Origin: Promethearchaeota archaeon Loki_b32
GTDB taxonomy: Archaea; Asgardarchaeota; Lokiarchaeia; Sigyniarchaeales; SOKP01
Reading direction: 5' to 3'
Assembly: GCA_005223125.1 (NCBI GenBank)
Contig: NJBH01000005.1
Coordinates: 64,001-128,000 of the forward strand
DNA length: 64,000 nt
Shown piece by piece: positions 26,696 to 32,005 of this stretch (within the stretch, counting starts at the first letter, position 1; each line of letters begins with the position of its first letter). The position numbers were made by a program, and so were the translations under genes. Under the pieces are notes generated by a model. It did not search any database. It worked only from the letters and a program-made list of their open reading frames with translations, and was not told where the DNA came from.

Positions 26696-26827
26696 ATGAA
26701 ATTAACTGTTATTTATTTTTCAGCAACAGGGAATACTGAAAAAATTGCTAAAGTTGCTAAGGAGCAATTTATTGAATTAAACAATGTTGGTGATGATATA
26801 AATATTACAAATAAGATCTTATTATAA
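26696..26827 (+). pseudogene. Truncated flavodoxin-fold gene (N-terminal 43 aa only)
   Basis: MKLTVIYFSATGNTEKIAK is the flavodoxin FMN phosphate-binding loop. The frame stops after 43 codons. Confidence 0.75.
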
Positions 26828-26960
26828 ATTATATAATTATTTGTTGATCCTATGGTTCGCCCATCGTATTGGCCTAAAGAATAACCCAAAAGATATTTTC
26901 TCAGTTCCATTCACTATTACATAAACATAATTAGATAAAGTTCAAGTCACTGCTTCTATA

Positions 26961-28115
26961 TTAATCTATCATATGAAGGATATCTCTTAATATATGGTTA
27001 ATAGTTTGCTTTTTAGATTTGATAAGTTTTTGCATTCTTAGGAACTCAACAAGATCTGTTCTATTTAGCCACCACCTCAGGCTTAATAGATGACAAAAAA
27101 GTCCAAATTTCTTTCGACGTTCAGAAAATAACTGCTTTGATTCAAATTTTGCATCTCTGATTAATTCAAATTTTTGAATACTAAATTTTATATTTGGATT
27201 CGAAATAGATTGTGGATTCGATGACCATTCAAGGCATCCCCAAACTTCGCCAGTTCGGGAAAGTACGCTACAGGGATAAAACATTTTTTCTTTAGTAATT
27301 AAAACAGGACTCTTCCAAATCTTTTTTTCCATTGAAAGACCTTTATTAGTGTGCTGGAATTGAGTTTGAGATCGGATTTTACAAAGTGTACTATATATAA
27401 TATCTTCTTTATTTAAAGAATCCGGTAATAATCCTTCAATTGGATAATAAATCTGATTTTCATTCAAAAAATTATATTCAAGAATTTTATCGATCTTTTG
27501 TATAATTTCAGACATGTCTATTCCTAGATATTTCTTATTTTCGACAACAATTTTTCTTGCCTCGTCAAATTCCTTTCTTTTTTCGAATGACTGTTTAGAA
27601 TATAATAAAATAGCTAGATCTAAATTTTTTTTTTTTTTTAAGGCATACTGATAATCCCTATAATACTTAAATGTATTACGAAATTCTATATAACAAGGAT
27701 TTCCCCCCAATTCTAATTTATTTAAATTTTCAAAATTTTCAAAATTCCCAATTTCTTCTATAAGGTTACTTCTGAGATCCAATACTTCAAGCTGTGTGAG
27801 TTTTTCAAGTCCTTCAATTTTTTTTATATTATTTTTTTGCATCTGTAAAGTCTTAAGATTAGTACATCTTTCTAACCCTTTAATTTGTGTAATTTTATTT
27901 TGGGTTAAGTTAAGTTCCTGTAAATTCAGCAAATTTTCTAGACCTTTTATCTCAGATATTTGATTATTGTAAAGGTTTAATGATTGGAGATCAGTTAAGT
28001 TGTCGAGATTCTTGATTTCATCAATTTCTTTTATTTGTTTTGATTGCAATTTAAGCTTTAAAGAACCTTTTTTCCCTTTAACTTTATAATTTTTCCCCCT
28101 TATGTCTACAAACAT
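26961..28115 (-). CDS. Leucine-rich repeat protein (SDS22-like LRRs) with unknown C-terminal domain
   Basis: 22-aa repeats LxxLxLxxNxIxxIxGLE and cap LELGGNP. In-frame A15 run at 27625-27639. Confidence 0.88.
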   Translation of the reverse strand: MFVDIRGKNYKVKGKKGSLKLKLQSKQIKEIDEIKNLDNLTDLQSLNLYNNQISEIKGLENLLNLQELNLTQNKITQIKGLERCTNLKTLQMQKNNIKKIEGLEKLTQLEVLDLRSNLIEEIGNFENFENLNKLELGGNPCYIEFRNTFKYYRDYQYALKKKKNLDLAILLYSKQSFEKRKEFDEARKIVVENKKYLGIDMSEIIQKIDKILEYNFLNENQIYYPIEGLLPDSLNKEDIIYSTLCKIRSQTQFQHTNKGLSMEKKIWKSPVLITKEKMFYPCSVLSRTGEVWGCLEWSSNPQSISNPNIKFSIQKFELIRDAKFESKQLFSERRKKFGLFCHLLSLRWWLNRTDLVEFLRMQKLIKSKKQTINHILRDILHMID

Positions 28116-28184
28116 AATTTATCAACTCTCAAATTTTATTTTTTTTGTAATACTTTATATTTTTTGAACTGATACTATGAAATA

Positions 28185-28478
28185 CTAAATTTTCTTACCA
28201 CAAGTGGGACATTCGGTGATATCTATATTTATAGTTGTCATACATGCTGGACAAACTCTTTTCTCTAACATTGTCTCGTTAACTTTTATTTGAGACTTAT
28301 TTTTTTTCATTCCTCGAACAATAAGAATTATGATTCCAATAATTATCATTAAAAAACCTATTAATGCAGGTGTTAGGCTCTGAAGACTAAAACTATATCC
28401 AAAAATCCCTCCTACTGCTAAAAACAATATTCCTGTACAAATTAGATAATATGGATTGGAATATTTATTGTATGATAT
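28185..28478 (-). CDS. Small 2-TM protein with C-terminal zinc ribbon
   Basis: Two hydrophobic helices then CPAC...CPTC. The track start (TTG 28427) falls inside TM1; the frame extends to ATA 28478, 7 nt after SD AGGTG. Confidence 0.7.
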   Translation of the reverse strand: MSYNKYSNPYYLICTGILFLAVGGIFGYSFSLQSLTPALIGFLMIIIGIIILIVRGMKKNKSQIKVNETMLEKRVCPACMTTINIDITECPTCGKKI

Positions 28479-28698
28479 AATGCAACACCTTGTATCTAAA
28501 TTTTAAATGTTTATCTTTTTTATGGCTAATTTTGACTCAAATATAAATTTTATCCTAATTATGATTTTTTCTTTAATTTGCTATACCCTTCTCATCTCAA
28601 ACAAACTATATTTCACCGCTCCAGACACGCCTCACTAACCCTCATGCCCTAAGCCTGAACTTCCCGTAATCAAGGCAATCGCGAAAAATATGTTCAAA

Positions 28699-28718
28699 TC
28701 CTTAATAGGAATTAAGGA
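28699..28718. repeat. Perfect 8-bp inverted repeat TCCTTAAT-agga-ATTAAGGA
   Basis: Read directly from the sequence. Confidence 0.7.
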
Positions 28719-29039
28719 AAATTTTCATTAGAAAAACCAAAATTTTTCACTAAAATTCCTTCGAAATCAGACTCTGAATTTACCTTTTGTATATAACAGC
28801 AAGAATTTTAAAAATTTCAATTAAAAATTTTATTTTATAAACCTCGAATCGAAGTAAATTATTAATATTTTTCTCTGCGTTCTTGGAAAAATTCTTCAAA
28901 CTCTCTAAATTGTCCGTTTCTAGTATTCATTCTATGTTTTTTAAGCACTACCAATAAGACTTTTTCAATAAATCTTGTAAGTAATATTTTTTTTGGCTTA
29001 ATTGAAGGTTATTATGTTTTCAAATAAGATTATAAAAGT

Positions 29040-29230
29040 GTTGTACACACTTTTTTCATACATCTCATGTTTGTATTTTTCATAGGTACAGTTCCAGAGG
29101 GTGTCCATTTATGTTTTTAGGCTTCAGTCGACCTTGAGCTGTGCGAAAGGGAAAAACTTAAATAGGATATCTCTCTGACTCTATTTTTGAAAAATACATA
29201 ACAAAGGGGTGGTAAAAAGTGAAAAGCAAC
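29040..29230 (+). ncRNA. Candidate long rod-like structured RNA / structured leader
   Basis: Nested helices 29048-55/29214-21, 29061-66/29206-11, 29068-71/29200-03, 29072-82/29188-98 (11 bp perfect), 29095-106/29165-77 and 29107-18/29152-63. Several G-U pairs work only on the + strand. TTATAAAA lies at 29030-29037. Confidence 0.6.
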
Positions 29231-29346
29231 GGAATCAAAACCAAGAAAACAATTCAAAACAACCATATTGGATATATATGATCTGCGAAAAATCATTAAG
29301 AAAATATATAGTATGAAAAATTATATTTCAAAAATAAAAAAGAAAT

Positions 29347-29367
29347 AACGAGACACGAAATCTCGTT
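29347..29367. repeat. Hairpin AACGAGA-cacgaaa-TCTCGTT (terminator or operator)
   Basis: Perfect 7-bp inverted repeat followed by T-rich sequence, 30 nt before the phosphatase ATG. Confidence 0.55.
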
Positions 29368-29396
29368 TGTATCTTTGTAACTTTTAAACGAAACTC

Positions 29397-29849
29397 ATGA
29401 AAAATAATTCTGAGCCTTTTACTTGGATTGTTAAAAATAAAATGGCTGCTTCTTGGTGGCCAGATGCATCAGAAATTGAGATTTACAAAAGAGAAAAGAT
29501 TAAAATTATAATTAATTGTTCTGAATTTGATAATCGGAAAGAACTTTCAAAGGATTTTGAATATTTTCATATAAATATACCCGATTTTGGAACACCAACA
29601 AAATCTCAATTAGATAAATTCTTGGAAATTACTAGTAAGTATGGAGCTAATGGAGATCCTATAGTAGTCCACTGTGTAGCAGGTTGTGGAAGAACTGGTA
29701 TAATGATTGTTGTATGGGCTGCGTATAATGGATATATTCCAAAAGGGCTGGATCCAGTAAAATGGATTCGAAAACTTAGACCATGTTGCTTAGAAACAAA
29801 AGAACAAATGGATTTGGCACGCCAAATAGCTAGAAAGTATCAAAAATAA
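29397..29849 (+). CDS. Dual-specificity (Cys-based) protein phosphatase
   Basis: IPDFGTP acid loop and HCVAGCGRTG (CX5R) active site. Confidence 0.93.
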   Translation: MKNNSEPFTWIVKNKMAASWWPDASEIEIYKREKIKIIINCSEFDNRKELSKDFEYFHINIPDFGTPTKSQLDKFLEITSKYGANGDPIVVHCVAGCGRTGIMIVVWAAYNGYIPKGLDPVKWIRKLRPCCLETKEQMDLARQIARKYQK

Positions 29850-31196: not shown

Positions 31197-32005
31197 ATTC
31201 CTGATTTTATGTATGATGATGTTGAATTATATTATATAAAGGAAGGAGAAGGTCAACCACTTGTATTAATTAGTGGATTAGGAAGTAAAATGAGTTGGAT
31301 TTTCCAAATTCCATTTTTCAAGGAAAAAATGATGGTGATAGCGCCACATAATCGTGGAGTTGGAAAGAGCTCACGACCTAATTATCTCTATACAATGGGT
31401 ATGTATTTAAGAGATATTAAAGAATTATTTGAACATTTAAACTTAAGAGAAAAAATTCACCTATGCGGACTTAGTATGGGGGGATAATTGCTCAAAATTA
31501 CGTTCTAAAATACCCTGATACCGTCAAAACATTGATATTATGTGCGACAACCTCTTACCATCCTGAAACTTCCGTGAAAGCGATTATTGAATCACAACAA
31601 CTTATGGAAAATTTCAACTTAGAACAAAAGTTAAGAGTAAGAATTGGTGTTCTATATTCAAGACCATTCCAGAAGAAATTAAGATCTGATAAAGAGTTGT
31701 ATCAAAAAATCAGACATAACTTTATTGAGGACCCTACAAGGTTACAAGATTGGATAAATCAATGTGCTGGAATAAAAAATCATGATACAAGAGATTCATT
31801 GCATAAAATTCAGCAACCAACATTAATTTTGGCAGGTGATGAGGATAAAATTATGGTTGGATTGGAACATTCAGAATTAATGCATGAGAAAATTCCCAAT
31901 TCAAAACTTGAAATTATTAAAAATGTCGGTCATAGATTTGTAGATGAAGAGCCAGAAAAAGTAAATAATCTAATCTGGGATTTCATTAAAGAAAATATGG
32001 GATAA
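31197..32005 (+). pseudogene. Alpha/beta hydrolase split by a 1-nt frameshift in a G6 run
   Basis: ORFs 31209-31487 and 31532-32005 join as GLSMGG-IIAQNYVLKYPDTVKTLILCA if one G is added to the run at 31478-31483. This may instead be a sequencing error. Confidence 0.75.

Follow-up and report, generated by a model that had tools for sequence, protein, structure and literature searches.

A long palindromic hairpin at the putative stump of a GIY-YIG nuclease gene in the phosphatase locus of a Loki-type Asgard archaeon

Results

The DNA analysed here, hereafter the window, is a stretch of 64,000 nucleotides (nt) from the genome of Promethearchaeota archaeon Loki_b32 (contig NJBH01000005.1, positions 64,001 to 128,000). 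It contains a 970-nt stretch without a credible gene, which is flanked by a small membrane/zinc-ribbon gene (28185-28427, − strand) and a dual-specificity phosphatase gene (29397-29849, + strand). Within this gap lies a long imperfect palindrome at 29040-29233, which on the + strand forms a hairpin with a 5′ arm at 29040-29118, a tip at 29119-29151 and a 3′ arm at 29152-29233. An initial annotation of the window had described an unexplained, rod-like RNA at this position that sequesters the Shine-Dalgarno (SD) sequence and the start codon of a short open reading frame (ORF). The results presented below suggest that a GIY-YIG nuclease cassette was inserted into the start of the phosphatase gene and has since decayed, and that the hairpin formed its palindromic 5′ control region.

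The minimum free energy (MFE) fold of the + strand of 29040-29233 contains 74 base pairs (bp) and has an energy of −64.5 kcal/mol, with about 66 of the pairs making up the rod. The annotation had claimed more than 50 nested pairs in one long stem, and all of the helices that it listed are present in the fold, namely CACUUUUU/AAAAAGUG, CAUCUC/GGGGUG, UGUU/AACA, an 11-bp UGUAUUUUUCA helix, CAGAG+GGUGUCC/GGAUAUC+CUCUG, AUUUA/UAAAU and GUUUUU/AAAAAC. The rod contains three 1x1 mismatches, which are U/U, C/C and U/U, and no A/C mismatch. The start signals, which occupy 29206-29221 of the + strand, are indeed sequestered: the SD-like GGGGTG (part of GGGGTGG at 29206-29212) and the GTG codons at 29209 and 29219 are paired in the helices CAUCUC/GGGGUG and CACUUUUU/AAAAAGUG, in the basal stems of the 3′ arm. 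The short ORFs that begin at the two GTG codons, with 35 amino acids (aa) from 29209 and 20 aa from 29219, read as the annotation had given them, and so does TTATAAAA at 29030-29037, just 5′ of the hairpin. The tip (29119-29151, + strand) is asymmetric and forms two mini-hairpins in the MFE fold, GGC-UUCA-GUC and CCUU-GA-GC-UGU-GC-GA-AAGG. Two competing folds had been proposed for this tip; the one with tandem G-A pairs is the second of these mini-hairpins, and the alternative pairing GCUUCA/UGAGC is absent from both the MFE and the centroid structure.

The 287-nt stretch from 29030 to 29316 folds better than dinucleotide-shuffled controls, with a z score of −5.1 on the + strand (none of 200 shuffles was as good) and of −2.9 on the − strand. 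The fold of the palindrome as single-stranded DNA is also significant (z −3.9). The claim of at least four G-U pairs that work only on the + strand proved conservative, given that we count eight or nine such pairs on the + strand and one on the − strand. When the whole 4.13-Mb assembly was scanned for inverted repeats (47-nt ungapped inverted arms with at least 37 pairs), the window hairpin ranked third by folding energy among 36 loci. The hairpin is thus confirmed as real and far beyond chance, and it is present in a single copy in its own genome according to BLASTN, tblastx and covariance-model searches.

The strongest inverted repeats of the genome are two adjacent, GC-rich (46%) long hairpins at G000:C6:82550-82900 (locus L114, 1560-1920), which have a folding energy of −150 kcal/mol (z −10.6) and no match in Rfam. 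A near-perfect 220-nt palindrome that is AT-rich (17% GC; z −14) is located at G000:C17:4900-5120 (locus L115, 1400-1620), about 400 nt from a contig end, and could represent a DNA palindrome or a hairpin end, or else be an artefact of assembly.

The annotation had not recognised the RNA as a member of any known family, and database searches agree. No Rfam family, 6S, Y, H/ACA and omega RNA included, matched the window at gathering scores, and a search of 28600-29600 at E values up to 10 left the hairpin unmatched and gave only chance-level matches elsewhere in that interval. A search for tRNA and transfer-messenger RNA genes found none. We rejected several specific identities. The signal recognition particle RNA of this genome sits on a different contig. 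A splicing-endonuclease stem would require a bulge-helix-bulge motif (a 3-nt bulge, a 4-bp helix and a 3-nt bulge on opposite strands), and this 3-4-3 motif is missing from the loop inventory of the MFE fold. The tip is not a kink-turn, being a tandem G-A internal loop without a 3-nt bulge, and a type I toxin was rejected on the grounds that the encoded peptide is hydrophilic and represents a gene stump, as described below. When the hairpin was compared by BLASTN with its own genome and 40 relatives, only chance A-rich matches were returned, and BLASTN and tblastx of the non-coding gap against the own genome detected no paralogue. The regions upstream of the phosphatase gene in 29 congeners contain no homologous or comparable hairpin. 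Pattern scans gave no match in metagenome contigs or, with three patterns, in viral contigs, and a 16-base tip pattern gave only chance bacterial matches in species-representative genomes.

A covariance model (R1) built from the single window sequence and its MFE structure found no match in the other 53 genomes searched in the genus. It did find one full-length match, with 47 bits and an E value of 2e-7, at G093:C2:3890-4086, in a genome (G093) of another genus of the same family. The orientation of this homologue is defined, because the opposite G093 strand reaches only 13 bits. The alignment of the two copies is co-linear, and they have in common the tip-region blocks CAUUUAUGnUUUUAGG, CGACCUyG and AGGGAAAAnC-UUAAAUAG, together with UACACAyUUUUUU-CAUACAyCUCA in the outer 5′ arm. 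The + strand of the G093 hairpin folds with −91.2 kcal/mol (z −9.7) into a rod and two tip hairpins, as in the window, and its − strand folds with −85.6 kcal/mol (z −9.1). Its tip, GGGGGG...CCCCCC followed by CCUC-GCAA-GAGG, keeps the architecture of the window tip with compensatory changes.

In the alignment of these two sequences, which was guided by the model and fitted to the structure, 23 of the 74 pairs have changed on both sides with pairing kept and 6 have changed on one side through G-U; 95.8% of the cells are paired. When the partners were slid by 1-3 columns as a control, double changes dropped to 1-6 pairs and paired cells to 46-56%. As far as a comparison of two copies goes, this shows that complementarity was maintained, by whatever force, while the window and G093 diverged, and it lends substance to the earlier view of a selected or maintained structure.

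The G093 hairpin is associated with a gene. An intact 298-aa ORF lies on the opposite strand (locus L236, 1509 to 613), and its start codon is within the basal stem. The predicted protein matches the Pfam GIY-YIG domain (PF01541) with 31.6 bits, above the cut-off of 22.6, and SegE_GIY-YIG (PF19835) weakly; its only relatives in the PDB are structures of the I-TevI catalytic domain (1mk0 and 1ln0). Members of this nuclease family have a patchy, multi-copy distribution, with one to seven matches in each of 43 of the 154 genomes of the order, a distribution that looks like that of a selfish gene. The genome of the window yielded no intact copy of the nuclease gene.

What the window does hold is a putative remnant of 35 codons at 29209-29316 on the + strand (MVKSEKQRNQNQENNSKQPYWIYMICEKSLRKYIV), which reads MVKSEK...PYWIYMI...RKYIV. 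Its first residues, MVKSEK, are also those with which L244, L249 and L260 begin (MVKSEKAPFGYIY...). The remainder aligns, by tblastn and by eye, with residues 8-33 of the G093 protein (NNQNSTKKPFGYIYLATNTFTRKVYIG), so that P-Y-W-I-Y...R-K-Y-I-V of the remnant stands opposite P-F-G-Y-I-Y...R-K-V-Y-I-G. Moreover, the DNA of 29231-29396 is co-linear with the 5′ coding sequence of the G093 gene, with a z score of 3.2 that was equalled by one of 300 shuffles. Because these signals combine with the homology of the hairpin and with the presence of a GIY-YIG gene at the same site in a congener (G002, see below), the identification of the 29209 ORF as the putative stump of a GIY-YIG gene is sound. A decayed, GIY-YIG-like nuclease had been among the ideas of the initial annotation, and the intact G093 gene, the MVKSEK start and the G002 gene all speak for it.

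The nuclease family itself is varied. Many members across the order carry one to five C-terminal repeats of about 70 aa. Those of 500-700 aa, of which there are many (for example G128:C89:1358-2602 and G003:C2:240426-241772), repeat the module found at residues 230-297 of the G093 protein three to five times, and the repeats may form a modular DNA-binding array. In three genomes (G070, G115 and G095; loci L254, L258 and L264), a GIY-YIG gene is located 160-200 nt 3′ of the GGM-repeat end of the thermosome (chaperonin) gene, which suggests that thermosome 3′ ends are a second preferred insertion site of the family. The strong folds upstream of the GIY genes at L254, L258 and L264 turned out to be the GC-rich, GGM-repeat thermosome 3′ ends, and not hairpins of the kind described here.

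The two palindromes, taken together, reveal what the arms contain. In all four arms, that is, the left and the right arm of both the window and G093, the same elements follow one another in the outward direction: a purine-rich block, a TATA-like box, a leader, a G-rich, SD-like hexamer and a start codon. The distance from the TATA-like box to the start codon is 44-57 nt across the four arms, and the hexamers are GGGGTG, GAGATG, GAGGTG and AGGGTG. The right-facing box of the window, TTAAATA at 29158-29164 (+ strand), comes after the purine-rich GGGAAAAAC and lies 44-54 nt upstream of the GTG starts, a position from which we infer that it was the promoter of the right-hand nuclease remnant. The left-facing mirror box, ATAAATG at 29106-29112 (− strand), comes after CCTAAAAAC, and an identical ATAAATG precedes the start codon of the intact G093 gene by an equal distance (56-57 nt). 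The corresponding boxes in the G093 arms are GGGAAAATC-ATTAAATA and CCTAAAATC-ATAAATG, and more than 12 genes of the family that lack a palindrome keep GAAGTTTAAATAC at the same distance from the ATG. The G093 equivalent of the start signals in the window is GAGGTG...ATG, which is located within the basal stem on the gene's own strand.

The left side of the window palindrome retains a stub of the mirror gene start at 29036-29056 (− strand; GAGATGTATGAAAAAAGTGTGTACAAC), which meets a stop after six codons and has 22 of 25 aligned bases identical to the G093 start region. Because the order of elements is the same in the four arms and the box is conserved in family genes that have no palindrome, each arm is, judging by these motifs, a copy of the promoter, leader and first codons of the nuclease gene, and the two copies mirror each other. 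In G093, the left copy runs into the intact gene and the right copy into some 35 codons that have decayed; the left copy of the window ends after the six codons and its right copy is the 35-codon stump.

The phosphatase gene on the right side of the gap encodes a dual-specificity/Tyr phosphatase (Pfam DSPc, Tc-R-P and PTP-SAK) and is present in 45 of the 54 genus genomes searched, its own genome included. In congeners, the protein starts with MVRPWYWPKNG..PFTW; intact alleles begin either in this way or with MVRPSYWPKNG..PFTW, and the intact 5′ end reads ATGGTTCGYCCATGGTATTGGCC... In the window, the N-terminus has been replaced (MKNNSEPFTW...), and a displaced, degenerate version of the first 20 or so codons (MVRPSYWPKE*...PFT), with a stop after codon 10, sits 2.5 kb upstream of the gene body at 26852-26920 (+ strand). 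Synteny with 29 congener loci defines a lineage-specific insertion of about 2.46 kb in the phosphatase 5′ end, at 26921-29384 with approximate boundaries, and a short target stretch is apparently duplicated at both of its sides. The insertion contains a leucine-rich repeat (LRR) gene (26961-28115, − strand), the transmembrane/zinc-ribbon gene, about 600 nt of non-coding DNA, the palindrome and the short ORFs with the nuclease remnant. Outside near-identical strains, neither the C-terminal part of the LRR protein has homologues in the protein database nor the zinc-ribbon protein in 153 other genomes of the order. Contigs of near-identical strains, with LRR and zinc-ribbon proteins that are 96-98% identical, are present among public assemblies. 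Proteins that are at least 90% identical to the window phosphatase are of the intact, 161-165-aa form, and one of them starts with MVRPSYWPK exactly like the displaced fragment; the insertion is therefore, to judge from these relatives, recent.

The best match of the G093 nuclease outside G093 is a gene with 50% identity and one internal stop at G002:C8:385-1221, in a congener of the window genome. The order of features in G002 is a displaced phosphatase start fragment (ATGGTTCGTCCATAGTATTGAGC), the GIY-YIG gene and a complete phosphatase gene, and the junctions of this insertion differ from those of the window. Closer relatives of the window genome have empty phosphatase sites. The behaviour expected of a homing cassette, which is present at a site in some genomes and absent in others, is therefore seen here, with a gene that is split in the window, uninterrupted in relatives and occupied by a GIY-YIG gene in G002. 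Because a GIY-YIG gene occupies the same phosphatase site in G002, these observations suggest that this very conserved sequence was entered on two separate occasions, as would result from site-specific homing. In G093, synteny with its congener G072 breaks off at the gene that follows the palindrome on its right.

Gene decay continues around the insertion. A flavodoxin/ferredoxin-like gene at 26696-26827 is cut to 43 codons, about 630 nt shorter than in the closest congener, and an alpha/beta-hydrolase gene is split into two ORFs at 31209-31487 and 31532-32005. Within the gap, a stretch of 70-80 nt at 28581-28660 is 77-87% identical to DNA of the congeners G052, G043, G001 and G024. A motif of about 45 nt at 28742-28787 (+ strand; TTTTCAnnnnAATTTTCATTGAAATCAGACTCTGAATTTACCTTTCCA) is recurrent in intergenic DNA, with nine more copies in the genome and many in the genus at 85-97% identity. 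The copies have unrelated flanks, a sharp 3′ edge and two short palindromes within, and the motif could encode a small RNA or be bound by a protein. It occurs away from GIY-YIG genes, and none was seen in the viral contigs scanned.

Discussion

We think it rather probable that the window hairpin served as the palindromic control region at the 5′ end of a free-standing GIY-YIG cassette of the I-TevI/Seg-like kind, which was inserted into the phosphatase start and then decayed. An intact element of this kind would consist of two outward-facing modules, each with a B recognition element (BRE)/TATA-like box, a leader of about 20-30 nt, an SD-like motif, a start codon and the first codons of the gene, arranged around a short structured spacer. 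A transcript initiated at an arm's own TATA box would have its SD motif and start codon free and translatable, because the opposite arm is missing from it. A read-through transcript containing both arms, on the other hand, would fold into a rod of 90-100 bp in which the SD motif and start codon are buried. Such a gate would silence translation of the nuclease on host read-through RNA, by a logic like that of phage T4. That the palindrome is a working control device of archaeal homing-endonuclease genes, in which the RNA rod shuts off nuclease translation or, as a + strand transcript, regulates it in antisense, is a proposal that we put forward tentatively.

The structures to which this arrangement is most readily compared are those of the T-even phage genes I-TevI, I-TevII, I-TevIII and segB and of Aeh1 mobE, where an RNA structure hides the ribosome-binding site (RBS) on early read-through RNA and an internal late promoter yields translatable RNA (PMC2988022). 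In both cases, a stable stem encloses the SD sequence and start codon of a homing-endonuclease gene (GIY-YIG or HNH) and the structure has a promoter-like element within it, so that transcripts from the gene's own promoter would omit the inhibitory arm; the free-standing nuclease gene is next to or in a conserved host gene. The phage structures are short local stem-loops, whereas the archaeal element is a rod of 90-100 bp with a two-hairpin tip, and its distal arm mirrors the whole promoter-leader-start module and has a gene stub of its own. It also has archaeal TATA/BRE promoters and no phage early/late switch, and it is known from sequence only. With respect to the nuclease, the resemblance to free-standing I-TevI/Seg-type enzymes (PF01541, PF19835; 1mk0/1ln0) includes a domain score above the cut-off, I-TevI as the best PDB match, a patchy multi-copy distribution, and occupation of the same conserved gene start in two genomes with empty sites in close relatives. 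The differences are that only about 35 decayed codons are left in the window and that the family is an archaeal one, of the Loki-type Asgard lineage, in which many members have one to five C-terminal repeats of about 70 aa.

Several observations weigh against the explanation preferred here. The hairpin is not a general feature of these GIY-YIG nucleases, since only two copies turned up in the genomes and loci searched: a two-sequence covariance model (R2, window plus G093) gave no additional match in 151 genomes of the order or in 151 genomes drawn from the phylum, and no hairpin was found upstream of 29 other family genes or at 12 viral relatives. With two copies, gene conversion from arm to arm explains the apparent covariation as well as selection does. 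The motifs that stabilise the tip on the + strand, a GCAA tetraloop in G093 and tandem G-A pairs in the window, are antisense to the live G093 gene, which is encoded on the − strand, and the G-U pairs of the G093 hairpin are unbiased (four on each strand). The promoters are assigned from motif position alone, and four T5-6 tracts within the rod could terminate archaeal transcription. As for the remnant, its tblastn match to G093 residues 8-30 is weak when taken alone (E of about 1), and the hidden Markov model of the family detected nothing significant in it.

The lack of strand bias in G093 bears also on the earlier argument that the G-U pairs point to an RNA structure rather than a DNA inverted repeat. 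The argument holds for the window, with nine pairs against one, and is qualified by the G093 copy and by the finding that both arms hold full modules, which is a signature of DNA duplication. One could indeed envision a purely DNA-level origin, in which the promoter, leader and first codons of the GIY-YIG gene were duplicated head to head and a rod RNA is neither made nor needed. Fold-back or template switching at the spacer hairpins, for example, would create a bidirectional promoter with a gene or a stump on each side, and intramolecular conversion would keep the arms alike. Besides the complete outward TATA-leader-SD-start module in each arm and the unbiased wobble pairs of G093, this scenario accommodates the extension of the G093 copy past the hairpin into the decayed codons on its right, the stubs on both sides in the window, the significant fold of the single-stranded DNA, and the consideration that transcripts from the inferred promoters would not span both arms. 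Palindromes homogenised by conversion, such as head-to-head duplicates, likewise consist of two outward copies of a promoter and 5′ gene portion around a short spacer, with arms that are similar within a genome and divergent between genomes. What such palindromes do not share with the present one is a conserved spacer structure and a sharp end of pairing. Here the arms pair almost perfectly between the tip and a point about 30 nt inside the coding sequence, beyond which pairing has decayed, a limit that suits selection on a stem better than indiscriminate conversion. The unpaired spacer is beyond the reach of arm conversion, and yet its two mini-hairpins (helices 4 and 5) were kept by compensatory changes. 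These two features and the G-U bias of the window favour selection acting on a folded single-stranded form. In addition, long palindromes are usually unstable unless they are favoured. We regard the DNA-only origin as somewhat unlikely, though it deserves to be taken seriously.

A stand-alone or antisense RNA could alternatively be transcribed from the + strand across the whole palindrome and, in an intact element, act as a regulator or antidote of the nuclease mRNA, given that the leader and start of the left-hand gene are matched by complementary sequence in the 5′ arm. The + strand tip stabilisers of both copies would suit such an RNA, as would the preference of R1 for the + strand of G093 (47 against 13 bits), the + strand G-U bias of the window and the TATA-like motifs some 25-30 nt before the hairpin base in both genomes (TTATTATG at 29011-29018 in the window, CTAAATAAATG at L236 1444-1454). 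TATA-like strings are frequent at 28% GC, however; no terminator directly follows the rod, the T5-6 tracts being inside it, and the only two copies are both at the start of a nuclease gene. This alternative seems improbable to us. Still less can be said for a live element in the present genome, either a cis-regulatory leader, as the initial annotation had offered, or a type I toxin-like module, for a functional peptide of 20 or 35 aa. The SD-like motif and both GTG codons in the 3′ arm would fit this idea, but the ORF is the truncated N-terminus of a nuclease family of 300-700 aa of which no intact gene remains in the genome, its peptide is hydrophilic, unlike toxins, and the element was not found in the other 53 genus genomes; we consider it very unlikely. 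A MITE (miniature inverted-repeat transposable element) or other multi-copy mobile hairpin, or a palindrome arisen by chance, would account for an inverted repeat that is long, AT-rich and located in a rearranged region, and is hardly credible in view of the single genomic copy, the failure to find a homologous transposase-bearing element, the rank of third among the 36 long inverted-repeat loci and the homologue with its conserved asymmetric tip sequence. The many MITE-type copies that the annotation had named as grounds for discarding its RNA interpretation are thus not there. Of that interpretation as a whole, the structure, the decayed nuclease and the lack of a known RNA family stand, the live leader falls, and the inference from G-U pairs needs the qualification given above.

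Returning to the decayed control region as our preferred explanation, the palindrome in the window is probably a relic that no longer functions, because the nuclease gene has been lost there. The phosphatase ORF is intact and its native promoter is lost; its candidate present promoters are the right-facing box at 29158-29164 or AT-rich boxes near 29300-29330. With the window element probably defunct, it is the intact G093 copy that carries the biological weight.

In terms of annotation, the insertion explains the 970-nt "empty" gap, the truncated N-terminus of the phosphatase and the stray 5′ fragment 2.5 kb upstream. An unexplained RNA thereby becomes a readable piece of genome history, in which a selfish GIY-YIG gene probably entered the conserved phosphatase start of Loki-type Asgard archaea at least twice and then decayed, with its control region staying behind. 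The analysis also draws attention to a family of I-TevI-like nucleases that is patchy and multi-copy in these archaea and to a palindromic promoter/leader of unusual length, through which expression of the nuclease may be gated as in T4. If the palindrome does work in this way, RBS occlusion would for the first time be described as the gate of a homing endonuclease from outside the phages, with two promoters that, unusually, also serve as an RNA switch.

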